A program made the translations under genes and the position numbers. The notes below the pieces were generated by a model, which searched no databases, was not told the origin of the DNA, and saw only the letters and a list, made by a program, of their open reading frames with translations. A stretch of DNA of 63,047 nt, filler included, from Babesia bigemina (Eukaryota), in the NCBI RefSeq assembly GCF_000981445.1. It is 6 parts of 6 records of this genome, joined end to end, with 100 filler letters (N's around TTAATTAATTAA, not from the genome) between each part and the next. Parts side by side here need not be neighbours in the genome. Positions count along the whole stretch, not along the records: positions 1 to 17,434 come from NW_012237197.1; positions 17,535 to 19,886 come from NW_012237198.1; positions 19,987 to 24,132 come from NW_012237199.1; positions 24,233 to 33,582 come from NW_012237201.1; positions 33,683 to 59,559 come from NW_012237202.1; 1 more part is not named here. The stretch is one strand, 5' to 3'. This document shows, piece after piece, positions 3,501 through 38,000 of the stretch (within the stretch, counting starts at the first letter, position 1; each line of letters opens with the position of its first letter).

Positions 3501-4637
3501 TAGGCACCAGTTCTTTAACAAGTCGATCAGCAGCTCTACCAGCATGGTAGAGTGATTGAGCCTTCAGCGTCAACTGCCTAATCGCCTCTTGTATATCCTT
3601 CTTGGTTCGTGCATTTTCTGTGTCTTTCACCTGCTGTAATATTATTTCAACCCTCTCTAACGCATCGATCATAGTCTGATCCGCATTCTTGATCCACACC
3701 GTCAGGTGTTCGACGTATTTTTTCAACATTTCGTCCACGATACCGATGTGTCCTTGTATATTTTCCATATTGTCAGCCAATGTTGTACTGATACGCCTTA
3801 TCTCATTATCAGTTGTCATGTGAACAGCGTGACGCAGTTTGTCAAGCACCTTATTAACATTCTCGCACAGCTTCTCCATACGCCACTTGTCTTCCTTTGC
3901 GTTCTTCGTGACGTGATTTATTTCCATTTTAATTTTCTCGAAGTCACTCATAACCTTCATTTGCAGAGGCCCATCAAGCTTTTTTATGGCCTCTTTCACT
4001 GCATTAACATTATCGTCCAACCCATCAAACACCGTCGTGGCCAAGGTGGAGACTACACTGTCTAGGGACTGGGACTTTAACTTATCAACTGCCGCAATAT
4101 TTTCACCAATTTTTCGTTTTAATGCTTTTAACGTGCCTTCACCTTCTTCTTTCACAACTTTATCTATTTTCTTTTGCAAATCTCCATCCCACTCCCCCAG
4201 CGCCGTGCTCACAGCCATAACGGCCTTAGACAATCCGCCAGGATTGTGCATACTGTTTTTAATTTTTTGGAGTGTTTCAGTCATTTTCTCTACAGGATAA
4301 TAATGCTTGACGTTTTCATCATCTTTCACCGCACCAAGCACCCCCAGCAAAAACGCCATCACCCCGTCACACAGCCTATCCAGGTCAGAGTACACTATCC
4401 CCTGGCCGTCGTAGCCTTTGGACTCTTTGTTGAAGCCGAGGAAGGTTTCGAGGCCGGTGCAGAGGTTAGTAAGGATATTAGTAGGGTTGTTATTTGAGGT
4501 AATTTTGAGGTTTTAAATTTTGTCAAATTTCTTGTCAAGCTCCCTAGGCGACACATGGTCAGGGCAGTGGCAAGAGGTGGAAGAGGGAAGGGAAGGGTGA
4601 CAAGGCACAAGTTATTGTGATGGTTTATAGAGATCAT
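504..4637 (-). pseudogene. ves1: ves1/VESA1-like gene; 3' end cut by vector; leader has a 1-nt frameshift (~4580) and an in-frame TAA (4513-4515); body ORF 504-4395 open
   Basis: GIVYSDLDRLCDGVM motif, long coiled-coil region, YVSRYSG, start of Cys-rich domain; leader aligned by eye with intact paralog at 17996. Confidence 0.75.
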
Positions 4638-4661
4638 AGCGGTATTATGGCGAGGTAATTC

Positions 4662-5161
4662 GAGCGATGTGTAGTGGATAAAGGAGCGATGTAGAGTGGA
4701 TAAAGGGGCGATGTAGAGTGGATAAAGGGGCGATGTAGAGTGGATAAAGGGGCGATGTAGAGTGGGTAAAGGGGCGATGTAGAGTGGGTAAGGGAGCGAT
4801 GTAGAGTGGATTAGGGAGCGATGTGGAGTGGGTTAAGGGGCGATGTAGAGTGGATAAAGGGGCGATGTAGAGTGGGTAAAGGGGCGATGTAGAGTGGGTT
4901 AAGGGGCGATGTAGAGTGGGTTAAGGAGCGATGTAGAGTGGGTTAAGGGGCGATGTAGAGTGGGTTAAGGGGCGATGTAGAGTGGATAAAGGGGCGATGT
5001 AGAGTGGGTAAAGGGGCGATGAGGAGTGGTTAAGGGGCGATGTAGAGTGGGTTAGGGAGCGATGTAGAGTGGGTTAGGGAGCGATGTAGAGTGGGTAAAG
5101 GGGCGATGTAGAGTGAGTTAGGGAGCGATGTAGAGTGGATAGAGGAGCGATGTAGAGTGGA
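4662..5161 (-). repeat. 22-bp minisatellite array upstream of ves gene
   Basis: Tandem GGCGATGTAGAGTGGATAAAGG variants on + strand (CCACTCTACATCGCCCCTTTAT in gene orientation). Confidence 0.95.
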
Positions 5162-5179
5162 TGATAATCACTAACTTTG

Positions 5180-5609
5180 TCACCATGTCATCGCTGCCGT
5201 AACCATGTCACCGCTGCCTTGACCATGTCCTCGCTGCCGTAACCATGTCATCGCTGCCGTTACCATGTCATCTGCTTGGTAACCATGTCATCGCTGCTGT
5301 GACCATAACCATGTCATCGCTGCCGTCACATGTAATCGCTGCCGTAACCATGTCATCGCTGCCGTAACCATGTCATCGCTGCCGTGTCCATCTCATCGCT
5401 GCCGTGACCATGTCATCGCTGCCGTAACCATGTCATCGCTGCCGTGTCCATCTCATCGCTGCCGTAACCATGTCATCGCTGCCGTAACCATCTCATCGCT
5501 GCCGTGACCATGTCATCGCTGCCGTTACCATGTCATCGCTGCCGTGACCATGCCATCGCTGTCGTGACCATGTCATCGCTGTCGTGACCATGTCATCGCT
5601 GTCGTGACC
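5180..5609 (-). repeat. 20-bp minisatellite array
   Basis: Tandem ACCATGTCATCGCTGCCGTG/A. Confidence 0.95.
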
Positions 5610-5970
5610 ATCAACTTGGTCAGCACTTTGGTCAGCACTTTGGTCAACACCTTGGTCAACACGTTGGTCGTGGCATTGGTCACCACGTTGGTCACCACGT
5701 TGGTCAACACGTTGGTCAGCACGTTGGTCACCACGTTGGTCAGCACGTTGGTCAGCACTTTGGTCAGCACGTTGTTCATCACTTTGGTCAGCACATTGGT
5801 CAGCACTTTGGTCACCACTTTGGTCAACACTTTGGTCACCACTTTGGTCAGCACCTTGGTCAGGTGCTTGGTCACCACCTTGGTCATGGCATTGGTTATG
5901 ACATTGGTCAGCACTTTGGTCAGCACGTTGGTCAACACTTTGGTCACCACTTTGGTCAACACTTTAGTTA
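5610..5970 (-). repeat. 12-bp minisatellite array
   Basis: Tandem TTGGTCAGCACT / TTGGTCACCACG variants. Confidence 0.95.
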
Positions 5971-6087: not shown

Positions 6088-9000
6088 TTACGGTTGCAGG
6101 TAAAACACCCTGTTAAGCTTGTTGACACGTGCGGCGGCGAGGAGTGATTGAGCGGCTATCCTATGACTCGAGGGACTATGTAGATGCGATTTGATGTGGA
6201 GGAGGTCGAGGCGGATGACCATGATGTGGAGGAGGTAGAGGAAGGAGAGGAGCCAGAGTGCGAGGGTTAGTGTCATGAAGGGGAAACGGATTGTGTATAT
6301 GAATTTGTCAATAGAGTGGAACAGTTGCATCAATACGGATTCTCCGTCGAGAACTTTCTTTAATGCGTTGCACAAATCGTTACACGTCCTCTTGTAGTCC
6401 ACATCATCGGTTCCACTCAGCTTCTTGCGGTCCACTAAAGTGAATCCGTATGTGCACAAAACCGACGATGTAGATGGGCAGTTTATTATGGAATCACACA
6501 ACGAGTGATGCGTAGATCCTGGCGATTTCTCGTTTGCCTTACATTTCTTCGGACATTTAGCGACACGGCATTTAGGCGTGGCACCGCCACATTTAGAGTT
6601 GCATTCCTCATACATTTTTTGAAGCAAGATGTAGAAAGTCTCTGTCAGATACACCATCCACGAAACGTATTTATCAGCGTGCTTAAACGAGAATGTGGCA
6701 CTGATATCATTACTCAAGGGACTCAAGTATTTACCGCACGTGGCCGCTGTTTTAGAGCTACATACGAGGCTGATAAGGTCACCTGATGTATGCGTCTTTG
6801 ATTTCCCAGAGTGACTAGAGTTAAATACAGAAGCGACATTCAACTCGTCATATGGGCGTTGCAGATTGGCTTTGGTCACTGCTTCGTCAAAAGCCTCTTT
6901 CTTGTGCTTCTTACCACCGTCATTCCACGTTGTTATAAACAGGTGATAAAACGCAAACATGTCACCCAGAGTCTGCGGCGGTCTACCTAGTACGCATACT
7001 AGAGAGGAGCAGAGTACAGTGAGTGGTGAGGACGGAGTGCCACAGAACTCCTTCAGTACTTTGTACAGTCTCGAACCCTTGCTTGTATGCGACGCCGTGA
7101 TGCTGATGTCGGCAAATCCCATTGGCGTTTTGCAAGGCTTGCCGAAATGGTTTGGTGCTGAACATGACAGCTTGCAGTCAGCCTTGTTATACGGATGAGG
7201 AAGGAAACCGGGAAGACCATCCTCCAAAAAGAATTGTAACGGTGACTTAACACCGCACTTAGGGTGTTGCTTGCACGTTTGGTTAGCTGTTTGGTCAGCT
7301 ATTTGCTTGCAGTTTTGGTCAGCACACTGCTTCTCATTGCACTTCCAACTTGAGCCGCCAACACCTTGCCCATACCAACACTCCGCCCATCCGCTGTATT
7401 GCGTCGAATTACTGCACTGCTCGTACAGGAAGCGCAACTGATGGAACAGTCTGTACAACAGTTCCACCAATACATCTAGACACTTAGCTGCGCTGGACGG
7501 ATATGCCAACTTGCCCGCGTTGGTGTAGAAATCGCAGGCGTAAATACCGTCATTATGCCCGTAGCCGAGGATGGATAGCAAAACGTCTTCTGCGTAGGTG
7601 GTGACTTCGGTGAGTTTGTCGGCCAGCGACGCGGCTGTGATGTCCTTCGGGTAGGCTGGCAGGGTGTCTGCTTCCTCACCTTCGAAAGTCGGACCGTCAT
7701 CGTCGGCGGTGGCGTCGCCTATCTTTTCCTCCTTCTCGAAGAGGCCACTGAAACCGTCGTAGGATAATGCGTGATACACCGGGTTATACGGAAGCCCGTT
7801 GAGCCAAAGCAATATGTCGAACACGGAAGAGGGATGCCGAGGTCTAGGATGAACAACGAGGTGACCGACGTGATTGTAGGCGTCCAGGTAATAGAACAGT
7901 CTCGACAGTAGACCTTCGTATTTTCTGTAATGCGCCAGGTATTCTTTGTAGGTTCCCAAGTTTTCTGGGTTCTCGTTGAAAGATTGGTAACGAGCGAATC
8001 CTCTGCTCATTCTGAGGGCGACTTCCTTACCGGTTTGATCCTTCAGCTGATCGATGTCATACCCCTCCTCCTGCAAATACTTTTTCAATTCATCCGCCTT
8101 TCGGGCACTTTTTGCGTTGCCGGTAACTTTGTAATCCGTCCACTCCGTAGCGCCCTTGTAGAACAGATGGTGGAGACCGTGGAAGTATGCCGGCCCGATG
8201 GTCAAAAACGCTTTTGCGCAATTGTTTACAGCCTTCTCATCGTGCTCCCACCTAACATTTGCGCCATCATACCTCGAGATATACACCTTGCCCAGCGCGC
8301 CGACCAACTCCCGGCAGCCACCGGAGACACCTTGCAGCATGGCAGTGACCGGGTTGGGGAAGCCGTCCGTTGTCAAGTCGGCAACGGCGGCGGTGAGATC
8401 GTCGAGCTTGGTAGGGAGATCGCGGTCGTATTTGTTGGAGGTGTAAACATGGCTGATCAGTCCGCTAAGGGCGGCATAGAGTTTGGTGAGTTTAGAGGTA
8501 TACGGATCCTGGGACCTGGGGAGTGAGGGATGCTTCTTATGTTCCTCCTCGTCAAGCCGGTTGATCTCGCTGTCGATGTACGATTTAACTGGTGCGAAGA
8601 ATGTCTCTAGGCTACGGCACAGAGTTGGAATGTCGGAGTTACTAAGAAGCCTGTTCACGTTGTCGCCGGAGTCGTTGCCGTTGAACGCCTCCATGAACCC
8701 CTTCAGGCCGATGTGCTGGTCGTGTTCGATTTGCGTTGGTAATTCTGACAACTCCAGCTTTACTTTCTCCACAAACTGCTCCAGTAGCCATTTTATGGAG
8801 TCAACGTACCGTCTGCGGGCGTGGGTTGTCAGGGCTGTTTCGGCCACGTTCACTTGTGTCTTGAGGTAACGTTGCATAGCTTGAACGTAGTGCTTTTCAG
8901 TAACTTCGGCATCTTTAAGGAATTTTTCAACGGCTTTGATAGGGCCGGACTCTAGATCACTTCGCAAATGACCCAGCTCGCTATGAATCTTATTGATGCT

Positions 9001-10995
9001 GTTTGTGGCAAGCTCGGAATCCGCAAAGTACTTCGTTTTCAGTTCAAATAATTTTGCTTTCGCGCTATCGGGGTCCTCACTGGTAACGTTCCTGATATCT
9101 TTGCACAGACTTTTTATCTTGTTCATTACATCTTGAGCATGTGTTTGCAGCGCGACTTTCTCAACCTCTGCGTTGCCTTCCAGGGTGCCGTCCAATTTAT
9201 TAATTACGTCAAGATACTTCTCAACGATAACAGTAACCTCCTTCTGCAGTTTTGCTGCACCGGTAATTGCGGCAGCATTACAAAGAGTGCCGATATCTGG
9301 TTCTATGCCCGCGGCCTTCTCTTGCATCGATGATTTCAATGTAGTACCGGCTCTGCCTGCAAATGTATTCCAACCTGAATTGCTCATTGTCGTTATTGAA
9401 TTTAGATAGTTTAAGACAATCTCAAAACAATATCCAAGGTTGCCTGCTTCATTTGCTATTTGTGCCGTGGTAAACAACACTCCAAACGTTCCCAATTTAT
9501 TTTTCAAATTGTTCTCACCAAGCTTTTTTATCATGGCATCCAAACCAGGTGTTTTTTTTGATGTCACAACAAGCCCATTCTGCGCTGTCATACCCGCCAC
9601 TAACGCCTCCTTCAAATGTTCCAGGTAATTCCCAACGTTTTTTTTAATTTTTTCAATAAGTGGCTTAATCACCGTAGACACATCCCATTCACCACTTGTT
9701 TGGTTGAACACACTAAACTGATGTGGCACAATCATGTTTTCCTCCAGCTCTTTTAGCTTCTTCACCGCGCATTCTCCTTTCCCATCTCCCTCCGGTCCCT
9801 TAACCTTCGTAACTACTGCATTATATTGGTTTCTCAACTCCTCAAATTTTCCGTGTAGTATGCTTGTCGACGCTTCGATCTGCTGGGCCGCTTGCGTGAT
9901 TTGGTTAGGATATTTATATAAAGAGCCTTCGTCGATACACTCCAATATTTTATTCACCTGCGTCTCTGCTGTCGTGATGGCATCCTTCGCATTGTCGATC
10001 CATTGCCCCAAATGCTTGAGGCAAATTTGAAGTGAATTATTGATTTGTTTCAGTTTGGCCAATATCGGTCGGACTTCCTTAGTCAGGTAGTCCAGCAAGG
10101 CTCTAACCTGATCTTGTATGTTACACTCTACATTCACCTGTAAACTGCTGAGTGTTTGACTAATGTACTGTTTAGTTGTATCCAACTCACTCTGCTGTTT
10201 GGCACGCACCGTCTCCAGCCGCTCGCTCTCATACGCAACGGTCGCACGAACATTGTCAAGCTTATCACGCAACTTATCATTAAGCTCTACAATTGATTTT
10301 TTGAGTTCATTATCAGCTACAGTGGTATCTATGTCACTAGTGAACTGTTCAGCTCTTTGCTGAAATTCTTTCAGCTTCGCGTCAATTTGCTTCGTGGCAT
10401 CTTCAACTTGCTGGTCCTTGTAATTTATCTTCTGACGTGAATCATCATGCTCTCGTAGGATCTTGTCTGAAGCTTCTTTAAGAAGCGTTAATTCACCTGT
10501 AAAGCTATTAAGTTTTTCACTCACCTTTTTATTAGACTGCTCCACTGCCTTATTATACCTCCCCACCCCTTCGACCACCTCCGCAATCGCAACACTAAAA
10601 CCTTTTTTACCGGCGTGTTTTTTCTCGTTAAGTATCTTAATTGCATCGGTAATTGTCTCTTTATGCTGCCCTAAATGCTCTTTGATGTTACTGAGAACAC
10701 CACTCAAAAACGCCACCACCCCGTCACACAGCCTATCCAGGTCAGAGTACACAATGCCAGAGCCGTCGTAGCCTTTTGATTCAGAGTTGAAGCCGAGGAA
10801 AGTCTCGAGGCCGTCACAAAGGTTAGTATGGATGTTAGTAAGGTTATTATTTAAGGTATTTTAAAGCTTATCAATTTCTGCAAATTTCATGTCAAGCTCC
10901 CTAGGCGGCACATGGTCAGGGCAGTGGCAAGAGGTGGAAGAAGGGAAGGGAAGGGTGACAAGGCACAAGTTATTATAATGGTTAATGGAGGTCAT
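6088..10995 (-). pseudogene. ves1: ves1/VESA1-like gene (class I tail); single in-frame TAA at 10861-10863 in leader; 1554-aa body ORF 6088-10752 intact
   Basis: MTSINH leader ATG at 10995, SDLDRLCD motif, FLEDGLPGFLPH Cys-rich domain, TM helix and tail DLLHIKSHLHSPSSHRIAAQSLLAAARVNKLNRVFYLQP. Confidence 0.75.
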
Positions 10996-11020: not shown

Positions 11021-11341
11021 AGCGATGTAGAGTGGGTTAAGGGGCGATGTAGAGTGGGTAAAGGGGCGATGTAGAGTGGATAAAGGGGCGATGGAGAGTG
11101 GGTTAGGGAGCGATGTGGAGTGGGTAAAGGGGCGATGAAGGGTGGGTAAAGGGGCGATGTAGAGTAGATAAGGGGCGATGTAGAGTGGGTTAAGGGGCGA
11201 TGTAGAGTGGGTTAAGGGGCGATGCAGAGTGGATAAAGGGGCGATGTAGAGTGGGTTAGGCAGCGATGTAGAGTGGATAAAGGGGCGATGTAGAGTGGGT
11301 TAAGGGCGATGTAGAGTGGGTTAAGGGCGATGTGGAGTGGA
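11021..11341 (-). repeat. 22-bp minisatellite array
   Basis: Tandem GCGATGTAGAGTGGGTTAAGGG variants. Confidence 0.95.
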
Positions 11342-11369
11342 TGATAATCACTACTTATGTCAGATGCTT

Positions 11370-11638
11370 GGTCACCATGTCATCGCTGCCGTAACCGAGA
11401 CATCGCTGCCGAAACCACTGTCATCGCTGCCGTGACCAAGACATCGCTGCCGTGACCATGTCATCGCTGCCGTGACCATGTCACCGCTGCCGTAACCATG
11501 TCATCGCTGCCGTGACCATGTCATCGCTGCCGTTACCATGTCATCGCTGCCGTTACCATGTCATCGCTGCCGTGACCATGTCATCGCTGCCGTGACCATG
11601 TCATCGCTGCCGTAACCATGTCATCGCTGCCGTGACCA
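11370..11638 (-). repeat. 20-bp minisatellite array
   Basis: Tandem ACCATGTCATCGCTGCCGTG. Confidence 0.95.
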
Positions 11639-12418
11639 CTAACTTGGTCACCACGTTGGTCACCACGTTGGTCAGCACCTTGGTTGACACGTTGGTCAAC
11701 ACGTTGGTCAACACATCGGTCAACACGTTGGTCAGCACGTTGGTCAGCACTTTGGTCAGCACATTGGTCAGCACATTGGTCACCACGTTGGTCACCACGT
11801 TGGTCATGGCATTGGTCACCACTTTGGTCATGGCATTGGTCACCACTTAGGTCAACACTTTGGTCAGCACATTGGTCAGCACATTGGTCACCACGTTGGT
11901 CACCACGTTAGTCGTGGCATTGGTCATGGCATTGGTCAGCACGTTGGTCACCACGTTAGTCGTGGCATTGGTCATGGCATTGGTCAGCACTCTGGTCAGC
12001 ACATTGGTCAGCGTTTAGGTCAACACTTTGGTCAGCACCTTGGTCAGCACATTGGTCAACACGTTGGTCAACACATTGGTCAACACTTTGGTCAGCGCCT
12101 TGGTCATGGCATTGGTCAGCACATTGGTCAGCACTTTGGTCATGGCATTGGTCATGGCATTGGTCAGCACTTAGGTCAGGTGCTTGGTCACCACTTTGGT
12201 CAACACTTTAGTCACCACTCTGGTCATGGCATTGGTCAGCACTTTGGTCAGTTGTTTGGTCAGCACATTGGTCATGGCATTGGTCAGCACTTTGGTCATG
12301 GCATTGTTCAGCACTTTGGTCAGCACCTTGGTCAGCACTTTGGTCAACACTTTGGTCAACACGTTGGTCAGCACCTTGATCACCACGTTGGTCAGCACAT
12401 TGGTCACCACTTTAGTTA
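11639..12418 (-). repeat. 12-bp minisatellite array
   Basis: Tandem TTGGTCAGCACA / TTGGTCATGGCA variants. Confidence 0.95.
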
Positions 12419-12537: not shown

Positions 12538-16642
<4,105 letters not shown>

Positions 16643-17534: not shown

Positions 17535-17965
17535 TCCTTTATCCCATTTAAATTGGCCCTTAATCCCTTCCAAATCGCCCTTAATCCACTTTACTTGGTC
17601 CCTAACCCATTCAACATGGTTCCTTTATCCATTCTACATCGCCCCTTAATCCACTTTACATCGCTCCCTTACCCACTTTACATCGCCCCTTAACCTCCTC
17701 TACATCGCCCCTTTATCCACTTACATCGCCCCTTACCCACCTTACATCGCCCCTTAACCCACTCTACATCGCTCCTCTATCCACTCTACATCGCTCCCTA
17801 ACCCACTCCACATCGCTCCTTAACCCACTCTACATCGCTCCTCTATCCACTCTACATCGCCCCTTTACCCACTCCACATCGCCCCTTTATCCACTCTACA
17901 TCGCTCCCTAACCCACTCCACATCGCTCCTTTACCCACTCTACATCGCCCCTTGTCCACTCTACA
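17535..17965 (+). repeat. 22-bp minisatellite array (degenerate at contig start)
   Basis: Tandem CCACTCTACATCGCYCCTTWAY. Confidence 0.9.
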
Positions 17966-17995
17966 ACCCTCGAATCACCTTGCCATATTACCGCT

Positions 17996-19876
17996 ATGAC
18001 CTCTATAAACCATCCTAATAACTTGTGCCTTGTCACCCTTCACTTCCCTTCCTTCACCTCTTGCCACTGCCCTGACCATGTGCCGCCTAGGGAGCTTGAC
18101 AAGAAATTTGACAAAATTTTAAACCTAAAAATTACCTCAACTAATAACCCTATCAACATCCTTACTAACCTCTGCACCGGCCTCGAAACCTTCCTCGGCT
18201 TCAACTCTGAGTCCAAAGGCTACGACGGCACTGGGATTGTGTACTCTGACCTGGACAGGCTGTGCGATGCGGTGATGGGATTTTTGAGTGGTGTGCTTGG
18301 TGCGGTGAAAAACGAAAATGAAGTGACAACTTATGATAATTACATGACTAAAAAGCTTAATGAAGTACTAGACACCTTAACTAAAAATATTGGCTCCGGG
18401 CGTGCTGGGCTTGCGGCGTCTGTCCGCGCGGTGAAGGAGTGGTTGGAGGGGTATGGAAAGAGTGTTAATCAAAAATGCGAAGATGTAAAAACGCCGTTGA
18501 TACTTATAAGAAATGACATTAATAATGTCGAACAAAAGTTTCAAGAGCAAAAAAATAAAACACTCAGAGACCAGCATAAGGCATGGAAACATATATTAGA
18601 GTTGTATCTCGGACACGCTGATGTGGCTGAAAAGGCGCAAGATAAATTAGATTCACAACTAATAAGAAAGTTAGAGACGCCGGTAACGGCAATAAAAGAT
18701 GCGGTTAAATTGTTGGAAGAGTCGGCGAGAAACAAGAAATTGGCGGAGGAGCTGAAGGCTGTCGATGAGGAGTTACTCCGTCAACGGAGAAGCATTGAAA
18801 ATAGGATGGCTCAGGAATTTAGAAATCTACGAGAAAATTTGACTGCTTTAACCGAAATGAAGGATGAAAAGTTTGCCCGTCTCAAAAACGTTGTGAAAGA
18901 AGCCAAGGTAGAAGCTAATAAATTGATTTCAGAATACAAAGGAACGTACAACAATGAGATTGACAGACTTTTTAAAGAGGTCACAATTGCACTGAACGAT
19001 ATCACAAAAAAGTCTGGCCCGGAAAGAAAATGCAAGCTCAACGAACTATTTGGCCAAATAAAAAAGAAAGTGAGCAATATTGGTATTGAAATTGGCAGCA
19101 GCAATGTGGAGTTAGCAGAGTGGAAGGTGGCCGCTGGAAATGTTTTGGAAAACGCTATGAGAACATGTGAAGATGTTGTTGAGAAGCTAAATATAACGTC
19201 GAATAACGATTTGAAAACACCGTTGCATCGTGTCAAGTTGAAAGCGACGGAGCTAAACGATGCCTATCAGGGTGCAAATAATAAGCTTCAGCAAGTTGCT
19301 CAGAAAGCTGAGGCTGCGTTTAAGCAACTTGGAACGCTTCATACCGACGTTAAGGAGAAGGTGCCGAAAGGACTTGATGATTTTAATAATGGCGCCGTTG
19401 AATGGAATGTTAATGGTCAAATCGTTGCACTTACAAGCTCGATTACAAGTAATGTTGAGGGGTATATGAAGGAGTTGTCGGCAACATTTACTGACGCAGC
19501 AGCAAGTGCCAGCTGGTCGGGTAATTTGAGACCAGGTGTTACAAAATTGGTTGGAGCTTTGCAAAATGGTAATCTGGGAACGGAGTTGAAGATATTAGGA
19601 GGCGTGCTGCAACAGGCCAATTCGAAAGCTCATAATAATATAAATGATGCATTATATAATTTGGAAATCACTCTTAGTCATTTCAAGCAGGCTATGGTGC
19701 ATTGGGGGGAACTTCCATCTGAGTTTTCGTCTCATGATATCCTGAAAGATCCCAAAGGCGCTTTTAGTACCCAAGCTATTGCCGACAATTTTAAAACAAA
19801 TCTAGGCCCCCTTTGCCCCAGGCGGCCCAAAAGCGTAGACGAATTTGACAGGCCAATCCGGCCGCGCGGGAAATAA
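17996..19876 (+). CDS. ves1: ves1/VESA1-like protein, N-terminal part; 3' end lost in low-quality contig end
   Basis: MTSINH leader, SCHCPDHVPPREL, GIVYSDLDRLCDAVM, coiled-coil region. Confidence 0.8.
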   Translation: MTSINHPNNLCLVTLHFPSFTSCHCPDHVPPRELDKKFDKILNLKITSTNNPINILTNLCTGLETFLGFNSESKGYDGTGIVYSDLDRLCDAVMGFLSGVLGAVKNENEVTTYDNYMTKKLNEVLDTLTKNIGSGRAGLAASVRAVKEWLEGYGKSVNQKCEDVKTPLILIRNDINNVEQKFQEQKNKTLRDQHKAWKHILELYLGHADVAEKAQDKLDSQLIRKLETPVTAIKDAVKLLEESARNKKLAEELKAVDEELLRQRRSIENRMAQEFRNLRENLTALTEMKDEKFARLKNVVKEAKVEANKLISEYKGTYNNEIDRLFKEVTIALNDITKKSGPERKCKLNELFGQIKKKVSNIGIEIGSSNVELAEWKVAAGNVLENAMRTCEDVVEKLNITSNNDLKTPLHRVKLKATELNDAYQGANNKLQQVAQKAEAAFKQLGTLHTDVKEKVPKGLDDFNNGAVEWNVNGQIVALTSSITSNVEGYMKELSATFTDAAASASWSGNLRPGVTKLVGALQNGNLGTELKILGGVLQQANSKAHNNINDALYNLEITLSHFKQAMVHWGELPSEFSSHDILKDPKGAFSTQAIADNFKTNLGPLCPRRPKSVDEFDRPIRPRGK

Positions 19877-24232: not shown

Positions 24233-24510
24233 ACTCTTTATCTCCCCTTTACCCACTCTACATCGCTCCTTTAGCCACTCTACATCGCCCGCTTTATCCA
24301 CTCTACATCGCCTCCTTAACCCACTCTACATCGCTCCTTTACCCACTCTACATCGCTCCCTAACACACTCCACATCGCCCCTTATCCACTCTACATCGCC
24401 CCTTAACCCACTCTACATCGCCCCTTAACCCACTCTACATCGCCCCTTAACCCACTCCACATCGCTCCTTTACCCACTCCACATCGCTCCCTTATCCACT
24501 CTACATCGCT
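24233..24510 (+). repeat. 22-bp minisatellite array
   Basis: Tandem CCACTCTACATCGCCCCTTAAC variants. Confidence 0.93.
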
Positions 24511-24511
24511 A

Positions 24512-27500
24512 ATTAAGTCCCTCCAATCCGAAAAATCTAAGCTTTCTTGCCCCTTCAAATACTCTGATAAGGAGACTTACTGTCAGTACTACGAGAAGCA
24601 AATTAGTGACACTACTAAGAAGCTTAAAGAATCTGGGAAAAAAGAAAATGAAATCGCTGAAAATCACAATATAAAGTTTAAGAAAACATGTCTAGAAGAG
24701 TGTATAAATGCTCACAAAAAACATCCTCCATCTCCTGCCTTGAAGTCTGTTGAAGAGAAGATTGTCCAGCTTGGTCACCTTGCTGGTAAGCTTGGCGGAT
24801 TTGTTGGTGAAAGTGACAGTGTTAACAAAGCCGTTAAGAATGCTATTATCGCTGTAATTAACAGTAATGAAGAGCTTAAAAATGAATACTCTTCTCATGT
24901 TACTACCCTTTCTGAGTCTGTCAAATCTGCTGACCAGGCTGTTGGCACCGTTGAAATTGAGCAGCTTAGTCAGCGAGTTAGTCAAGAAATTACTCTAATT
25001 ACTCAACGTATTAATAGCCCTAAAAACCTTCCTAATAATCTTCCTCCTTCCCCCTCTCCCTCTGCTGACTCAGCCGAATTGCAGCCCAAGTTGGAGGCTT
25101 TGAGGAAGGTGGAGAAGCTTTGTGGATTTTATGAGAATCTTAATACTAAACAAAATGATCCTAAAAAGCTCTTAGATAATTTATGTTCCGGCCTCGAAAA
25201 ATTCCTCGGCTTCAACTCTGACTCCAAAGGCTACGACGGCAGTGGGATTGTGTACTCCGACTTGGACAGGCTGTGTGACGGGGTGATGGCGTTTTTGAGT
25301 GGTGTTCTCAGTAACATCAAAGAGCATTTAGGGCAGCATAAAGATATTATTCAGCCTGTAATTGATACACTTAACACCAATAAACACGGCGGTAAAAAAG
25401 GTTTTAATGAAGCGATTGGAAGTGTGGTCGAAGGGGTGGGGAGGTATAATAAGGCAGTGGAGCAGTCTAATACCTCCATAAAAACTCCGATAAGAAATTT
25501 GTATAGCTACTTGAAACCTGAAAAAGGTGAGTTAACTATCGGTCTTAATGCTTTGCAGGTCACCGAGCAGCCTGGACAACACGTTGTCGACCAAGCCGAG
25601 AGGCTGGTGGCGACAACCCTTCAGAAATCTAAGCAATTTGACAGCGAACTTAAACGCGTCGAAACACATATTAATGATCTAAATGCAAATTGTAAAACAC
25701 TTGTAAATCACGCACGTAAGAATGTTAGCTATGAGACTAAGCGGCTGGAGGAGCTGTCGAAAAGCGGCAAGACCAGCATGACCGACATGGAGCGGAAAAT
25801 CACCGACACGTGCCAGACGCTCAAGGAGGCCATCAAATCGGGTATAACGGCAGAAGTGGAAATCCTTGTTCGTGATTTGAAGAAAAAAGTATTCGATATT
25901 TTGATGCAACTTAAGGACATTAACGAGAAATTGAAGGAGTACGTTAGGAATCTTGATCAGTGGATGTTGAAGGCAAACGCAGTGGCGAGCGAAGCTGCGG
26001 ATGAAGCTAAATTCATAAATGGGAGACGGCCCGGATTTGAAGATCAGAATGCAATTAAAAAGATTGTGAGGGAACTGAACGAAAGGAGCGGCGTGCTTTG
26101 CAGGTATATAGATGACGTTAAGGAAGAATTTAATACGAAAGTCAAAGCAGCGCTTCAGCAAGTGAAAGACATGGATGGGAAGCTGAAAGAGGATTTGAAG
26201 AAGGTGAAGGATGAAGTAGGCAAAAAAGTAAAAGAGATCAAAGAGGCGATTGGATACCTCTACAATAAAGTCACTGGCACACTTGGACCGGTGAGTAATG
26301 AGAAGACGATTGAGGAGATTATGAAACATATTAAAGGGCAGGTGGAGATCATCAAGCAGAAAGTTGGAAGTGAAGACACACCAAATAAAAATGATCCACT
26401 TAGCATCGATTATAATTGGGATGCACTGAAGACAAAGATTATGGACCGCGTGAGTGAGATATACGATAAGAAAGGAATAGGAAATATGAATTATCTTGGT
26501 AATATCGAGAAGGGCGTTGCAACGTACGCTGCGTTGTTTAATGACGCAAGAGTAGGAAATGGATTAGAAAAGACGGTTGGTGGATGGGTAGAAGGCATAG
26601 TCATGAGTCATGCGGTTCAAAGTTTGCTTAAGGAGTATTTTGACCAAAATAAAACCAGCGGCTACTTCGATGGCAGTTTAAAGAATGACATTCCTGGAGC
26701 TTTACGAAGGTATGTAACACCCAATCTAATGCTGAGTGTCAAAGAGGCTGTTCGTACGATCAAACCCTCCCACAACTTCTACACTGCTAGCACTGTCAAT
26801 GAAAAGCTGATATACATTAGGGAGTATCTCGGCCAATTATCCAATGACGTAATGAGAAAGGAAGGTGAGATTGTTTCCGCTGTTGCAGGTTTTGTAGAAC
26901 TTCAAAAGGATGTTGTACAGTACGGTAGGGGGATTACACAGAGAAAATTTTTTCTCACTTCTGCTGTACGCGTTGTTCTCTCAGCTCTCAAACACACTGC
27001 AGAGAAAATTGCTGAACAACTTCAAAATTTCACCGACGACGGAGCTATAGGGTTGGGTAGTCGAGTTAAAGCATCCATATTAACTGTAAATCAAATTGGG
27101 GGTGAATTCGAGACTATCGGTAATTCGTTAGGTGCTAAGATTCAAGCAGCGCTTGACGGTGTAAAACCAAGCATTAAGAATCTCCACTATAATGTGGACA
27201 AGTCGGTTGAACTCAGCGCTAGAGAAGGCGTACCTAATGATGCCAAGGCCGTCGACACTGCGATCAAAGGCGTGACTGAAGAGCTTGAAAAGAAATTGAT
27301 AGCGAATGGAGATACAGTCACGCTTGACAAAGATACAACATTTGCTCAATACAACGGTTTCGTCGACCAAACTAAAGTGGGTGGTGAACCAGACGCATTA
27401 GAGGGCACCCTCCCAACCAAGATCAAAGAGATTGGCACGTACGCTGACACTGGATTCAGCGTTGATCCAACCAGGGAGGCTCTGGAAAAATGGTCGGAAA

Positions 27501-30500
27501 ATCTCGCCAATAATCTCAAATCCCTCTTAACGGCATTTGCCAAAAGCGGAACATTTATACAAGAGAAGTTGAACACACTCACAAAGGAGACTATCGGGAA
27601 GGATCTCAAACAAATTAAAGAAAAACTTTCCGAGTTGCAGAAAGAGTTGGAATCTGGTCCCATTCAGAAGGCAACAGTTTTCTCTGATGAAGCCCAAAAG
27701 TTACAACAGAAATGCATCCAATCCCTCCACGTCCACGTTGAGGCCAAAATCAAGCAAGCAAACTCCGACGTGACCACCGAGGCCCGCAAGCAGTACCTTT
27801 GCGCTGTCAAGTCGCTGCTCACTGTATTCTCGAACAAGGTTAAGAGCGAGTTGAATGCTGTTCTTCGAGACATAAACAATGACTTAAACATAGGTCACAA
27901 AAAGTTCATGAGTACGTTTGGAGAGACCTTCGTCAAAAGTGTTAACGACATTGACGCCGTTAATGCAAACGACTTCGCTGCCGAAAAATCCCCGCTTAGC
28001 GTATCAGCCGATTTACTAAACACCGCCGTGAGAACATTGTTCAGCGAATTAGAGAAGCAGAAGGACTTCGCCCCTGACTTCAAGAGAATCGCATCTACGC
28101 AAGCGGCCGCCCGTAAGCTACTTTACAACCTAACGAAATCTCGACAGTTTGATCATGTATTTTCCTTAGATTTGGATGAGCTCAAGACAGTCCTCGCTCA
28201 ATGTCTTCCTCAAAAATTCGGTGACGGCAAGTGTCCGTTGCTGCTTGAGGCTCTGCTTAAGGGCTTCATGCCTCTGGTCGAAGAGTTAGAAAAGCAGTAT
28301 GTCGGCAGATATTCTGGTAGAGTGTACGATGTGTCCGACGAACGTAGCTACGCCAAAGTGTTTATCACTTGTTTCTATACGCTTCATAAGACGCTGAATA
28401 AGTTGAACAAGGGGTGTATGAACGGTGGCCCCTGGAATGACAAACCATGTTGTGAAAAGGGGAAACGCGGCGAGAATCCATTTGGTCAATTTATGATTCA
28501 GTGCGGATTCCGGATCGCCAAGGATGCGGACTCCAAAGACGGCGAATTGAAGCATCCCTCTGACAAGTTCACCAGTAAGGCGATCCACGACAAACTTCTC
28601 GACAGCAAATTCATAGATCCCGAATTACGCACGCACCTTATTAAGTGCGAATCCAATATACACAACAAGCCCGATCAGTTCGACATTTTCGATCTCCTCG
28701 ACTGCACTCTTCATCACTTTGACAGGTACAACGAGCTGTGTCACATACCCACTGCGTCATCAACCAAAGTGCCAAGCAGCATATACGATATGCTCATATG
28801 GTTTTGTAGTCTACCCTACAGTGCCGTCTATCCAACGCTGTTACGTGACACTATAAGCGATCTTCTTACTGACAAAGCTAAGCAAAAGCCACAGGCGCAC
28901 GACGGGCTGGAGTTCACATTCATCGATCCGGCGTCGCAATCCCTAGCAGCGTACCCAAAGAGCATACCGTACAGTGAAGTAGTCTCCGCACTCGAACATC
29001 TTTGTTCCAAATCGCACGATGTTCTCACTTGCATCGTAGGCTACGGCGACGCATACAGCACCTACGGCAGCGACTATTGCAACAATTCATTTGGATTTAA
29101 GTATCCCTCCTCAGGGGAGGATTGTTTGCAGATGATCACTGATCTCCTCCGTAGGCTTCTCCATTGTCTTCGGTATCTGCATAAACAGTGCGGCGTAACA
29201 GCCAAGCACAACGGTTGGTCCGACTGCAGATTCGGCAAGGACGTTAAGTCAGCCAAATGGGAGTGCAAAGATCACTCAACCGACGAACCTAATTGCCAAG
29301 CAAACGACAAGGCAACGTGCCAAGCAACTTGCCAAGCAAAATCGCCGCTTCAGTCCTACTTAACCGATTGCTTATATGGCCACTTGCCTCATCAACTCAC
29401 CAGTGTTGGATGTAAATCAACATGCAAGTCGTGTCCTGGTAGCTCTCCCGGGATGCCGTGTTTAACGCCACTTGGGTTCAGCGGCTTTTCAGGCTCAACT
29501 CGCAAGGGTACGGACCTATGCGAGGTGCTCGATGCATTCTTCTCTAACGATTATCTGTCATCGCTGTTCACGCTAGCTCCGCGACCGCCGGAAACGCTAC
29601 CGGAGCACATCGGATTTGCTTTGTCACTAGCAGCGGCGCTTAATGCTGGACAGCCGGTCAGGAAGCCCGCTCAAGAATCGTTCAGCGATGCATTCGAGAA
29701 GTCCATCAAGGGAGCCACCATCAGCCTTTATGAGAATCCCTCAAATTATACTGCTGCCGTTAAAAATGCCTATAAAAACACACAAAGTCACGAAGGTCAT
29801 AGCCATCCCCCAGCGACGGAGGCGGACGTATACACGCTTATGTTCCCATCAACTTGTTTGCGTTCAAGCGACGACAGGCTGTACTGTGCTCCATACCTGT
29901 ATACGTTAGGCATGGATACGCATCATTATCTTGCCTACCAACATACGAATCTCTATCTGTCATGGACGATGTATCTGCCCTGGACATTCTATTCATACCT
30001 TAGAAGTCTACTTGAGGCCTTCAAAAATGTTTCCTGCCAGGAATGGGAGTGCAGCAAATGTATGCATCGCGGAAAATGCAAGAAGGGCCAGCATGGCGTC
30101 GACTACAACTGCCAGTGCAAAGGTATAATAGAGTGCCGTGGCGTAAGTAGCGCATTCCACAAATACGGTTTCACATTCGGCGACCCTGCAATTCTGTCTG
30201 AGGTGGAAGGGAAACGATATTGCCACAACTTCTACAACCAACTCGTTAACGTCTTAAAATCGAATTGCTTTGCTAAGTTATTTGATAAATGCGACGAATT
30301 CCTCTGGATCATCAGACAACCGTTCACATACTTGGTTCTCGCACTCTGGTCACTATCCCTCTTCTACCTCCTTTGCGTAATGGTTGGCAGACTGGATGTG
30401 CTCCACATCAAATCACACTTACGATCACCGTCATCGCACAGGATAACGGCGCAATCACTGTTGGCTGCAGCGCAAGTCGGAAGGCTTGCCAAGATATCGT

Positions 30501-30514
30501 ATCTACAACCGTAA
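24512..30514 (+). CDS. ves1: ves1/VESA1-like ORF (class II tail) with no start codon; frame open back to the 22-mer array
   Basis: IKSLQSEKSKLSCPFKY... in frame with LKSVEEKIVQLGHLAGKLGGFVGES, SDLDRLCD, Cys-rich domain, TM helix, AQVGRLAKISYLQP. Confidence 0.8.
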   Translation: MKSLQSEKSKLSCPFKYSDKETYCQYYEKQISDTTKKLKESGKKENEIAENHNIKFKKTCLEECINAHKKHPPSPALKSVEEKIVQLGHLAGKLGGFVGESDSVNKAVKNAIIAVINSNEELKNEYSSHVTTLSESVKSADQAVGTVEIEQLSQRVSQEITLITQRINSPKNLPNNLPPSPSPSADSAELQPKLEALRKVEKLCGFYENLNTKQNDPKKLLDNLCSGLEKFLGFNSDSKGYDGSGIVYSDLDRLCDGVMAFLSGVLSNIKEHLGQHKDIIQPVIDTLNTNKHGGKKGFNEAIGSVVEGVGRYNKAVEQSNTSIKTPIRNLYSYLKPEKGELTIGLNALQVTEQPGQHVVDQAERLVATTLQKSKQFDSELKRVETHINDLNANCKTLVNHARKNVSYETKRLEELSKSGKTSMTDMERKITDTCQTLKEAIKSGITAEVEILVRDLKKKVFDILMQLKDINEKLKEYVRNLDQWMLKANAVASEAADEAKFINGRRPGFEDQNAIKKIVRELNERSGVLCRYIDDVKEEFNTKVKAALQQVKDMDGKLKEDLKKVKDEVGKKVKEIKEAIGYLYNKVTGTLGPVSNEKTIEEIMKHIKGQVEIIKQKVGSEDTPNKNDPLSIDYNWDALKTKIMDRVSEIYDKKGIGNMNYLGNIEKGVATYAALFNDARVGNGLEKTVGGWVEGIVMSHAVQSLLKEYFDQNKTSGYFDGSLKNDIPGALRRYVTPNLMLSVKEAVRTIKPSHNFYTASTVNEKLIYIREYLGQLSNDVMRKEGEIVSAVAGFVELQKDVVQYGRGITQRKFFLTSAVRVVLSALKHTAEKIAEQLQNFTDDGAIGLGSRVKASILTVNQIGGEFETIGNSLGAKIQAALDGVKPSIKNLHYNVDKSVELSAREGVPNDAKAVDTAIKGVTEELEKKLIANGDTVTLDKDTTFAQYNGFVDQTKVGGEPDALEGTLPTKIKEIGTYADTGFSVDPTREALEKWSENLANNLKSLLTAFAKSGTFIQEKLNTLTKETIGKDLKQIKEKLSELQKELESGPIQKATVFSDEAQKLQQKCIQSLHVHVEAKIKQANSDVTTEARKQYLCAVKSLLTVFSNKVKSELNAVLRDINNDLNIGHKKFMSTFGETFVKSVNDIDAVNANDFAAEKSPLSVSADLLNTAVRTLFSELEKQKDFAPDFKRIASTQAAARKLLYNLTKSRQFDHVFSLDLDELKTVLAQCLPQKFGDGKCPLLLEALLKGFMPLVEELEKQYVGRYSGRVYDVSDERSYAKVFITCFYTLHKTLNKLNKGCMNGGPWNDKPCCEKGKRGENPFGQFMIQCGFRIAKDADSKDGELKHPSDKFTSKAIHDKLLDSKFIDPELRTHLIKCESNIHNKPDQFDIFDLLDCTLHHFDRYNELCHIPTASSTKVPSSIYDMLIWFCSLPYSAVYPTLLRDTISDLLTDKAKQKPQAHDGLEFTFIDPASQSLAAYPKSIPYSEVVSALEHLCSKSHDVLTCIVGYGDAYSTYGSDYCNNSFGFKYPSSGEDCLQMITDLLRRLLHCLRYLHKQCGVTAKHNGWSDCRFGKDVKSAKWECKDHSTDEPNCQANDKATCQATCQAKSPLQSYLTDCLYGHLPHQLTSVGCKSTCKSCPGSSPGMPCLTPLGFSGFSGSTRKGTDLCEVLDAFFSNDYLSSLFTLAPRPPETLPEHIGFALSLAAALNAGQPVRKPAQESFSDAFEKSIKGATISLYENPSNYTAAVKNAYKNTQSHEGHSHPPATEADVYTLMFPSTCLRSSDDRLYCAPYLYTLGMDTHHYLAYQHTNLYLSWTMYLPWTFYSYLRSLLEAFKNVSCQEWECSKCMHRGKCKKGQHGVDYNCQCKGIIECRGVSSAFHKYGFTFGDPAILSEVEGKRYCHNFYNQLVNVLKSNCFAKLFDKCDEFLWIIRQPFTYLVLALWSLSLFYLLCVMVGRLDVLHIKSHLRSPSSHRITAQSLLAAAQVGRLAKISYLQP

Positions 30515-32724: not shown

Positions 32725-32770
32725 TTACAATCATCTAACTGGCAACTGACATCTAATGTTATAGACAGTA

Positions 32771-32929: not shown

Positions 32930-33012
32930 TCACAATAACCGAACTGGCCACTGACATGTAATGTTGTAGACAGAGTAATCATTGCGTTGATGACAAATCA
33001 CATGAGCAGTGA

Positions 33013-33174: not shown

Positions 33175-33298
33175 TCTCAGCGATTTGTTAGCGTAAACAA
33201 TGTAATCCAAATCCCAATGATCACGTAACTGGCAACTGACATCTAATGTTCTAGACAGAGTAATGATCGCGTTGATGACCAGTCACATGAGCAGTGAG

Positions 33299-33582
33299 GT
33301 GACCAACGTGCTGACCAATGCCATGACCAGAGTGGTGACCAATGCCATGACCAAAGTGCTGACCAAAGTGATGACCAACGTGGTGACCAGAGTGGTGACC
33401 AAGGTGATGACCAAAGTGCTGACCAATGCCATGACCAACGTGCTGACCAATGCCATGACCAAAGTGTTGACCAATGCCACGACCAAAGTGGTGGCCTATG
33501 TGCTGACCAAGGTGCTGACCAAAGTGCTGACCAATGTGCTGACCAACGTGATTACCAAGTTATGGTCACGGCAGCGGTGACA
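33299..33582 (+). repeat. 12-bp array followed by the start of a 20-bp array
   Basis: GACCAAAGTGCT / GACCAATGCCAT units, then GGTCACGGCAGCGGTGACA. Confidence 0.92.
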
Positions 33583-33682: not shown

Positions 33683-35005
33683 TACATCGCTCTTAACCCA
33701 CCCTACATCGCCCTTTGTCCACTCTACATCGCTCTTAACCCACCCTACATCGCCCCTTAACCCACTGTACATCGCTCCCTAATCCACTCTACATCGCTCC
33801 CTAATCCACTCTACATCGCTCCCTAATCCACTCTACATCGCTCCCTAATCCACTCTACATCGCTCCCTAACCCACTCCACATCGCTCCCTAATCCACTCT
33901 ACATCGCCCCTTTATCCACTCTACATCGCCCCTTTACCCACTCTACATCGCTCCCTAACCCACTCTACATCGCTCCTCTATCCACTCTACATCGCCCCTT
34001 TTTCCACCTTACATCGCCCCTTTATCCACTCTACATCGCCCCTTTACCCACTCTACATCGCCCCTTAATCCACTCTACATCGCCCCTTTACCCACTCTAC
34101 ATCGCCCCTTAATCCACTCCACATCGCTCCTTTATCCACTCTACATCGCCCCTTTATCCACTCCACATCGCTCCTTGACCCACCTTATATCGCTCCCTAA
34201 CCCACTCTACATCGCTCCCTAACCCACTCTACATCGCTCCCTAACCCACTCTACATCGCTCCCTAACCCTGTCTACATCGCCCCTTTATCCACTCCACAT
34301 CGTCCCTTAACCCACTCTACATCGCCCCTTTATCCACTCCACATCGCTCCCTAACCCACTCCACATCGCCCCTTTACCCACTTTACATCGCTCCTCTACC
34401 CACTCCACATCGCTCCTTTATCCACTTTACATCGCCCCTTCATCCACTCTACATCGCCCCTTAACCCACTCCACATCGCCCCTTTATCCACTCTACATCG
34501 CCCCTTTATCCACTCTACATCGCTCCCTTATCCACTCTACATCGCCCCTTTATCCACTCTACATCGCTCCCTTATCCACTCTACATCGCCCCTTTATCCA
34601 CTCTACATCGCTCCTTTATCCACTCTACATCGCCCCTTTACCCACTCTACATCGCCCCTTTACCCACTCTACATCGTTGCCTAACCCACTCCACATCGCT
34701 CCCTAACCCACTCTACATCGCCCCTTTATCCACTCTACATCGCCCCTTTATCCACTCCACATCGCTCCCTAACCCACTCTACATCGCTCCTCTATCCACT
34801 CTACATCGCCCCTTTATCCACTCCACATCGCTCCTCTATCCACTCTACATCGCTCCCTAACCCACTCTACAACGCCCCTTAACCCACTCTACATCGCCCC
34901 TTAACCCACTCTACATCGCCCCTTTATCCACTCCACATCGCTCCCTATCCACTCTACATCGCCCCTTAACCCACTCTACATCGCCCCTTTATCCACTCTA
35001 CATCC
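33683..35005 (+). repeat. 22-bp minisatellite array (~1.3 kb)
   Basis: Tandem CCACTCTACATCGC(C/T)CCT(T/A)... units. Confidence 0.96.
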
Positions 35006-35032
35006 CTCTAATCACCTCGCCATAATACCGCT

Positions 35033-38000
35033 ATGATTTTTATAAACCACAATAATAACTTGTGACTTGTCACCCTTCACTTCCCTTACTTCTTCTACTG
35101 TCGCCTCGTCTGCCGACTCGGCTCTTTCTACTGGCAAGCCTACTAAGTCTACTACTCCCGCGAAAAAAAGTTTTGAAGAGATTAAAAAAGACATTAATGA
35201 AGAAGTTACAAAGCTTCCTAAAACCATAAAAGAACTTGAAAATGACTCTTCTAATGATGATGTTACTAAGCGTTTATCTGACTGTCAGTCCAAGTTGGAG
35301 GCTTTGCAGACTGTGAATAAGCTTGCTGAATTTGCTGATTCACTTACTAAAAAACCTGAAAATGATAATATTTTAACGCATTTATGTTCCGCCCTCGAGA
35401 AATTCCTCGGCTTCGACCCGAAATCAAAAGGCTACGACGGCAGTGGTATTGTGTACTCTGACCTTGACAGGCTGTGTGATGCAGTGATGGGATTTTTGAG
35501 TGGTGTGCTTAAGGATGTCAGCGAGAAACAGCCTTACAGTGTGGGTAAAAATGATTTAAAACATTTTGTTGAGACAGAATTAAAAACTAAATTATCCACC
35601 GGGCGTGAGGGTTTTAAGGTCATTGAGCAGGTGGCGAGGAAGGTGCGGGAGTATAATGATAAAGTAAAAACATCGAATGAAAAAGTGAAAAACATCATAA
35701 ATGAAATGAAAAACAGCGTCGGTGAGACGTTGACAAAAAAGATGCATGCTATAAATAATGATCATCCTGTAGAAACTGACGTCACGGCAGCCGAAGCCTT
35801 GGCCAACGAGTATGCTTCAAAAGGTACGGATTTCATAAACGGTTTCCGTGTTCGAAAGGATTTCAATATTAAACAAGGTGCGAAGTACGATGATATAGAC
35901 GAATTTAAGGACTTGAATCCTGACGTACAACAGAAAATTACTAATGCTATACAAAACATTTCGTATGAAGCTACACGGCTTGGTGCGTTGTCTGCGAAGG
36001 AAATAAGTAACTTTGATGAGATGACAGCGAAGATCAAAGATACGTTTAGTTCGCTTAAAAGATGCGTGAATGATCAGATCGGCCTTAAAGTACATGCCCT
36101 CGTTTCCGAATTAGTGAAAATAATAAACAACATTTGGAACTCGCTAAATGAAATTGCCGATACGCTGCGGCAATATATAACAGAGTTGGTGGAGTGGATT
36201 ATTGAGGCAGACAAAATCATGACTGAAGCAATCAAGGGGGCGAGGGAAATTGAACAGAAGAATCCGGGCTGGAGAGAGCAGCTAACAATTGAGGGTAAAG
36301 CAAACGAATTGAAAAACAAAGGTGAACAGCTTTATCAGAAATTCGAGAGTGCAAAGCAGAAAGTTGAGAACAATGTAAAAGCAGCGCTTGGGAAGGTGAA
36401 AGAGATGGACGGGAAGCTGAAGGAGGATTTGTATAAGGTTAAGCAAGCGGTGGATGCGCAGGTGGCGGAGATTAAAAATAAGATTGGACAGATGTACAAG
36501 CAAATTGACCCAAGTGTCAACCAGGTAACGGCGGATAACAAGCAAAAGATTGATACACTAATGAAGCACATTAAATCAAAAATTGGAGTGATTGCGGGAA
36601 GTGGCGTAAGAGTAACGAAAGGACTAGATATAATAAAAAAAACAATTAAAACATACGTCAGAGCGTTTAGAGAAAGCTTGGGGGGAAAGGTTGAAGAATG
36701 GTTAACAGATATTATAAAGAAGGAACCAGTGAAATGGTATATTTCAAAGTATGCCTTAAATAATAAGAATATAATTCATCAGGAATACCGGAATGCTACT
36801 GATGACGATGATGTGTATTCACAACTTGCCACTAAAATTGCAAGCGTTATTAAGGGGCAGTTCGAAAGTGAAGTTAACGGCAACATGATCCGTAAAGCTG
36901 TTGAAGACGTAGCTTCGAATCAAAATGCAAACATCGAAAACAATTTGCAAGACATTAAAACCATTTGCACAAGTTTTGCAGACGCACTTGATCGGAAACT
37001 TAAGAACAGCGCCTTGAAAGGTTCCCAGGTTCAAAATCCTGAAATTACATCTTTCATCAAAAGTATAGCAAGCACAATTGAGAAAGCGCTCAGGGAATCG
37101 GACTATGATTCTTCAACGGCCATCCCCGATTTTTATCTTATATCTGGTCTCCACTCCATCCTCCCGTCGTTGGCTGCTTCCGCAAGGCATCTAGCAAAGG
37201 AAGTTGATAGCCTCGCCTTGCAGCCTAACGGAAACAGTATTGGCAAACAATTGGACGACGCAGCGTCCACGGCTAATGAGCTATACGGTAGGTTCGAGAC
37301 GGTGCTTGGCTTACCACCTGATCCCGACCGTGAAAAACCCAATCACGCCAAAGCCGTCGACACCGCGATCGAGGGTGTGACTGCAGAGCTTGCGAAAAAG
37401 CTGAAGCCAGGTGACGCTAATGCGGTCAAGCTTGATAAAGACGATACGTTCCGGCAATACAATGGTTTCGTCGAGCAAGATAATTTGGCCGCCCTTACTA
37501 ACCCTGACTTCAACATCATCAAAAGCGCAGGCTCCCTCCCCGCGGCGATCGGTGTGATCAGAGAAAAAATGGTGAAAGACCTAGATGAGGCATGCAAGGA
37601 GACAAAAAACGCAACCGTATTCGACACATTATCCAAAGAAATCAAAAATAGTCTAAATGCGCTTGTCAATGCGTTTGCAGAAGCTGGTGAAGAGGTTAAA
37701 AAAAAATTGGTAACTTTTAATAATACGAAAATCGGCAAAACTGCACACGGCGTTGAAGCCGCAAGCGACACTTTGCAGAAACTTCAGAAGAATCTCCTCG
37801 ATTTGCTAACCGGTAAACTGGAACCTCTCATTAAGTTGGCCAACAAATGCATCAGAAGTGACGCCGACGTGTTTAAAAAACGATGCATTGACAGCCTCAC
37901 ACAACATGTCAACACTGAATCTCAAGAAGCAGTAGACAAGCTCATCACTCAAGCAAGAAAGCTGTGCATATCGTCAATGAAGTCTTCCCTCGAACAATTT

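Follow-up and report, generated by a model that had tools for sequence, protein, structure and literature searches.

The ves1b and ves1ba genes of Babesia bigemina, a blood parasite of cattle, are described, in the text sections of Jackson et al. (2014; PMC4066756), as a protein family with C-terminal types, mosaicism and transposition between loci, and that study could not separate expression models for variation of the red-cell surface antigen in this species. Here, we analyze a 63,047-nucleotide stretch of assembly GCF_000981445.1 (the window), composed of six unplaced draft contigs, which by its sequence carries B. bigemina-type ves1b genes in tandem. The window genes have the published traits in common with the ves1b/ves1ba family; headless arrays, the leader and the repeat spacer reported below are undescribed in the text sections of that paper, where the string "truncat" occurs 0 times in the main text (Figure 3 lies outside this statement). 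Comparisons with published systems draw, here and throughout, on parts of the cited sources.

Truncated ves1 genes as donors are a known idea. In Babesia bovis, truncated ves1 "functional pseudogenes" outside the locus from which ves is actively transcribed (LAT; non-LAT genes) have likewise been proposed as donors to the expressed locus, and segmental conversion is also in print for this species (Brayton et al., 2007, PMC2034396; Allred review, PMC6630957). By contrast, the window bodies are near full length and open, lie head-to-tail with a fixed spacer and have selectively lost the head. Pneumocystis msg-I genes, with their upstream conserved sequence (UCS) and conserved recombination junction element (CRJE), are similarly chromosome-end, mostly open genes that rely on a 5' part located elsewhere and have a conserved element near the gene starts (PMC10622565); in B. 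bigemina, however, 11 headed models replace the single-copy head, and the joins are variable instead of fixed. No fixed junction of the CRJE type was found, as leader and head never occur together among the best 120 of 157 homologs, and a conserved core could stand in for such a junction. The silent VSG arrays of Trypanosoma brucei, with 70-bp repeats (PMC3170485), are likewise tandem and subtelomeric, with upstream repeats, conserved 3' ends and mosaics, but about 85% of those genes are pseudogenes, whereas breaks in the B. bigemina window are confined to the front. The traits held in common with silent donor cassettes of the msg, VSG and vls type are the missing head (8 of 8 genes) and the open bodies; an in-frame ATG is still present in 4 of 7. 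Headless ves1b arrays or this spacer were not found described in the Babesia ves literature (including PMC4066756, PMC10463595, PMC5660447 and PMC9047050), with figures, subscription papers and the B. ovata gff3 outside the scope of the search; the stereotyped headless array seems new in the literature searched.

On balance, we think it probable that these genes belong to an archive of headless cassettes that feeds headed, expressed ves1b loci by segmental gene conversion. A wider proposal is tentative: in B. bigemina and B. ovata, most ves1b genes would be held as purpose-built headless cassettes in inward-reading chromosome-end arrays, with a G-quadruplex-forming spacer and the core as recombination anchors, the dominant VESA1b proteins would be mosaics on few headed loci, and mis-started gene models would mask the archive. 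If most ves1b copies are headless donors, the real expression loci would be few and findable via the head sequence, many public gene models would have wrong starts, artificial introns or fused neighbors, switching would be directly testable by head-primed transcript sequencing, and an apicomplexan would possess an archive in the style of trypanosomes and Pneumocystis.

Headless genes and their variable joins

The long open reading frames (ORFs) of the window are ves1b-type, with B. bigemina and B. ovata proteins as best matches (among the best 120 of 157 homologs). B. bigemina proteins are the top matches (54% over residues 1-300), the window C-termini nest among B. bigemina homologs in a C-terminal tree, and four homologs labelled BbigVes1b in the 2014 proteomics table tie the genes to the name ves1b (Jackson et al., 2014, PMC4066756). 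Pfam matches of the window genes are of the coiled-coil type only; the VESA1_N model matches neither the window proteins nor five headed homologs, with one B. ovata relative matching, and thus does not discriminate. Divergent alpha/beta ves1 pairing was not found inside any window contig. Filler blocks lie at 17435, 19887, 24133, 33583 and 59560; gene neighborhood is valid within single contigs only, and close to contig ends the base calls may contain errors. Two ves genes are truncated by cloning vector, which occupies 1-498 and about 16370-17434. The features along the window are as follows.

499..4637 (-): ves1b cassette; front of leader and SCHC block with a one-base deletion (4583/4584) and TAA (4513-4515); open body, 3' end cut by vector
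4664..5965 (-): spacer of 12-bp (5616-5965), 20-bp (5182-5611) and 22-bp (4664-5160) repeats
6088..10995 (-): ves1b-type cassette with ..RVFYLQP end; TAA at 10861-10863, 1590-codon open body
11022..12410 (-): spacer of 12-bp, 20-bp and 22-bp repeats
12538..16368 (-): ves1b-type body, truncated at its 5' end by vector sequence from cloning
17574..19876 (+): 22-bp repeat, then an open leader with ATG at 17996, the core and part of a body, running to the contig end
19987..20843 (-): spacer (12, 20 and 22-bp repeats) and eighth leader, the latter cut by the contig end
20970..24132 (-): ves1b-type body sequence, 3' part
24246..30514 (+): 22-bp repeat abutting a leaderless coding sequence (gene 24512) of 2000 open codons, the first of which corresponds to residue 54 of headed P0015
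30670..31227 (+): 24-bp repeat downstream of a ..KISYLQP-type 3' end
33683..40727 (+): 22-bp repeat (to 35004), leader with TGA (35063-35065), off-frame join, 1879-codon open body
40887..43667 (+): spacer of 24-bp, 20/25-bp and 22-bp repeats
43696..49302 (+): cassette with open leader and SCHC front; 1868 codons
49454..51876 (+): spacer of 24-bp, 20-bp and 22-bp repeats
51905..57571 (+): 1888-codon cassette; its open leader meets the gene at about residue 126 of headed P0015
57696..58422 (+): spacer of 12-bp, 20-bp and 22-bp repeats
58452..59559 (+): open-leader cassette that stops at the contig end; its core region and that of gene 24512 are nearly identical

Headed homologs start M..KKLTDCPEN..IDWLIQV. 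The coding sequence of this canonical head was not found anywhere in the window and is absent at 8 of 8 visible 5' ends, each of which retains the conserved ..GIVYSDLDRLCD.. core; comparison with full-length ves1b N-termini thus upholds the view of the first-pass annotation that the loci are 5'-truncated. That annotation had also noted a leader joined to three downstream sequences (SCHC.., KSQ.. and SSTV..), and all three joins are present. The leader meets the N-terminal region at many points and in differing frames (5 of 30 leader models are off-frame); in gene 51905 it is joined at about residue 126 of P0015, and gene 24512 begins directly after the 22-bp repeat with no leader at all. Among the best 120 of 157 homologs, the leader is found in 29, head motifs in 22 and both in 0. 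The 87 named B. bigemina homologs comprise 11 headed models, 34 that begin in the leader in some frame and 42 that begin elsewhere (one with a degenerate head by eye); the head is thus absent in 76 of 87, shares that a headless query biases. Headed models account for 9 of 20 on chromosomes and 2 of 67 on unplaced contigs.

Table rows, some of them tied to sequences, place large genes forward at chromosome starts and in reverse at chromosome ends, indicating that the arrays read inward. The B. ovata models, 8 of 76 of them headed, have a pyrimidine-rich leader of their own, which differs from that of B. bigemina and has several join points. Several of these models (P0243, P0245, P0248 and others) reach 3,300-7,100 aa with 2-4 core copies and resemble headless genes in tandem that gene prediction has merged.

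An unseen head exon might be spliced on, the leader being the end of an intron, but we regard this as very improbable. The leader is pyrimidine-rich, one YAG is common to the five SCHC copies, and in two public models the leader joins right before an ESIDW-type segment; against this, no head coding sequence was found in the window, and every pre-core YAG lies upstream of both TAAs, which would thus stay in a spliced transcript. Moreover, the span of the MAP-type headed models equals 3 x aa + 3 nt in 3 of 3 cases, which leaves no intron in their coding region. Five chromosome-end models span 11-74 nt beyond their protein's need, an excess that would represent gene-finder introns patching frames. 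The leader as intron 1 before the ESIDW-type segment was rejected in view of model spans and acceptor positions.

Disablements and constraint in the fronts

Three disablements had been claimed for the fronts of otherwise stop-free, multi-kb bodies, and all three are present in the sequence. The gene with ATG 4637 (-) carries its TAA together with a one-base deletion relative to sister copies, placed at 4583/4584 instead of about 4580; the TAA of gene 10995 (-) is codon 45; and the TGA of gene 35033 (+) is codon 11, with the body in another frame. The bodies are indeed free of stops, although body 1 (499-4512) runs into vector at about 498 and its 3' end is unseen. The claim that the breaks cluster within the leader holds for the fronts, to which the stops are confined, but not for the 20-codon leader itself, as two of three stops sit in the SCHC block (codons 41-45). 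With the front taken as 48 codons per copy in the seven readable leaders of eight copies, there are 3 stops per 336 front codons and 0 per 13,927 body codons (Fisher p 1.3e-5, or 1.3e-4 once two contig-end breaks are counted).

Reads speak differently for the two TAAs and for the frameshift. Two runs on the likely source sample yield contigs with both TAAs (one matching contig with one difference at an unlisted place), which argues against single-read errors, although the runs are not independent. The deletion occurs only in short X2 pieces, whereas three X1 contigs across the site carry the base, so the frameshift may be a base-call error. In the independent DNA run X3, leader and core are covered, and the uncovered SCHC block was left out of account; as a weak hint, its loose ends show leaders continued by other sequences. 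Reads also reveal loci in which the leader is duplicated, as in P0018 and P0089.

The distribution of breaks bears on the possibility that the genes are idle truncated duplicates, in which chromosome-end arrays turn over by unequal exchange and bodies are intact as young copies of functional genes. We consider this unlikely: random decay would be expected mostly in the 5-kb bodies, not in a 150-bp front, and the opposite is seen; truncation halts before the core in 8 of 8 genes; and B. ovata models have a similar layout. In its favor, one body is interrupted by a retroelement, and constraint on the bodies, where the ratio of nonsynonymous to synonymous differences (pN/pS) is below 1 in 26 of 27 comparison windows (at least 60% identity; median 0.41), could be inherited from expressed ancestors. 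The lone exception is a pre-core stretch common to 24512 and 51905 (pN/pS 1.13).

Constraint in the front itself was compared among five copies. Codons 1-20 have a pN/pS of 0.43, codons 21-48 of 1.66, codons 1-48 together of 0.90 and the core of 0.25, and a codon-position test gives Fisher p 0.015. The expected contrast between leader and body is thus borne out for codons 1-48, relaxed relative to the core, while the 20-codon leader alone is not decisive. Identity is 88% in the 27 bp upstream of the ATG and 87% inside, so conservation does not begin at the leader ATG. Silent-site divergence is lower in the front (0.13) than in the core (0.34), which suggests recent spread of the front between bodies. 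Even conservation across the ATG, relaxed constraint over codons 1-48 and variable off-frame joins support the earlier view of the leader; it is most likely a non-coding flank, and the loci, as read from sequence, most likely 5'-truncated.

The same data bear on expression in place, from the leader ATG or a post-core Met, with the three broken copies as early pseudogenes. Of 72 models, 70 have a Met after the core, 4 of 7 leaders are open, peptides are assigned to array models, and one headless B. ovata model is well transcribed (see below). Off-frame joins, leaderless gene 24512, the high pN/pS of codons 21-48, equal conservation upstream of the ATG, gene 10995 with no post-core Met and the near-zero level of 25 of 26 matched headless B. 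ovata models all stand against it, and we judge it quite unlikely.

Exchange with headed genes and expression

The C-terminal tree has 83 rows and leaves out 12 of 87 B. bigemina homologs that have no recognizable C-end. Accounting for its 10 headed rows takes 7 changes, of which supported branches force at least 5; shuffled labels need 9.3 on average, and 11 of 500 shuffles are as low as 7. By C-terminal sequence, the headed rows are partly clustered and not a separate lineage. Headed P0016, P0102 and P0015 have exact runs of 78, 73 and 47 residues in common with headless proteins at an overall identity of 42-54%; in the other eight headed proteins, exact shared runs measure 17-36 residues. 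Given this patch sharing, the earlier suggestion that silent donors are completed only by conversion is plausible. Recombination alone, as among idle duplicates, would also explain the patches and the scattered tree labels.

Under the archive reading, tandem ves1b genes with no head, behind a repeat spacer and the MTSINH flank, would be silent. Deletions would advance from the flank into N-terminal coding sequence that is out of use and halt short of the conserved core. Anchoring homology would come from this core and from the class-specific 3' end with its untranslated region (UTR), and recombination may be promoted by the G-rich 22-bp repeat. Array bodies would be copied patchwise into headed, expressed ves1b genes, giving rise to surface antigen variation.

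The 2014 proteome, in which one strain was searched against another's models and which is tabulated without peptide sequences, has 18 rows labelled ves1b; four were matched to sequences, and the head is present in 4 of 4. Peptides are also recorded for many chromosome-end "hypothetical" models, and array-type bodies thus seem to reach protein, which fits conversion into a headed locus as well as direct expression. Molecular-weight matches 0313900, 0314000 and 0212370 were dropped as spurious, and 8 of 23 rows are unmatched. In B. ovata, 158 of 180 rows with an unplaced B. bigemina ortholog have fewer than 1 read per kilobase per million (RPKM; by-eye count). Among genes matched to sequences (9 of 33 by accession, the rest by length), 25 of 26 headless models are below RPKM 0.5, and one of seven headed genes reaches 487. 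Ten well-expressed rows have no matching protein sequence. These sister-species values lend weak support to silent headless genes, with a real counter-example.

Several observations weigh against the archive reading. BBBOND_0300010 (P0089), with an off-frame leader, has an intensity-based absolute quantification (iBAQ) value of 11,090 vs 8,525 for the top ves1b-labelled row. In B. ovata, one headless model, matched by length only, reaches RPKM 309, six of seven matched headed genes are near-silent (below 2.5), and the top row (2105) is not assigned to a class. Headed genes are numerous (11 models among 87, subject to the query bias) and occupy no single site. The leader ATG is present in 8 of 8 copies, only 3 of 7 readable leaders are broken while 4 of 7 are open into the body (17996, 43696, 51905 and 58452), and a frame open from this ATG onward is found in about 25 of the 76 public models that have no head. 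The pN/pS of front and core rests on five related copies, the low value for codons 1-20 reflects few changes, and the shared patches carry no direction of transfer.

Spacers, 3' ends and a retroelement

Within contigs, the head-to-tail unit consists of a stop, about 130 bp of 3' UTR, repeats of 12 or 24 bp, 20 bp and 22 bp in that order, the leader and the gene. The 12-bp repeat and one UTR type lie downstream of four ..FYLQP(RV/KV) ends, and the 24-bp repeat and the other UTR type downstream of four ..KISYLQP ends; the spacer repeat type thus tracks the class of the preceding 3' end. The 12-bp and 24-bp units resemble 12-bp minisatellites of the cysteine-rich coding region (56296-56362, 39529-39561). 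In many 22-bp units, the sense strand of the gene carries CCCTAA/CCCTTAA-like words; this would be the polarity of a telomere-like repeat for inward-reading genes. G-quadruplex motifs number 23 in the 5,940 bp of nine 22-bp arrays vs 1 in 38,310 bp of bodies, and enrichment of such motifs near ves genes has been reported in B. bovis (PMC9047050).

The 3' ends also bear on whether the genes are 5'-truncated retrocopies made by a Babesia element that lacks long terminal repeats (non-LTR). A reverse transcriptase (RT)/endonuclease-type ORF with Babesia relatives lies at 61534-63045, and the 5' ends of the genes vary; yet poly(A) is absent after 8 of 8 visible 3' ends, the conserved UTRs are followed without a break by class-specific repeats, and the truncations all fall within the first few hundred codons of 5-6 kb genes. 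Such an origin is highly improbable.

The segments at 61534-63045 (-) and 60416-61462 (-) are the 3' part of an RT ORF, which scores 77% against a B. ovata RT and has relatives in B. caballi, B. divergens and microsporidia. Its CCHC and PD..E-like motifs are presumably those typical of non-LTR elements with a restriction-like endonuclease. The ORF stops about 70 bp short of a 3' fragment of ves1b with matching orientation, giving the appearance of an insertion within a ves gene. RT rows of B. ovata have RPKM 15-298, and RT gene expansion has been noted (PMC10463595).

A second insert, at 31250-33300, lies within a spacer and contains a 75-bp repeat, a 169-codon cysteine-rich frame (32215-32724, +) with a hydrophobic end, and two further copies of that hydrophobic tail. 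Finally, 58629-59558 on one contig and 25180-26110 on another show near-identity for about 310 codons, beginning at the core, behind fronts that differ, reflecting either recent conversion or an assembly duplicate.

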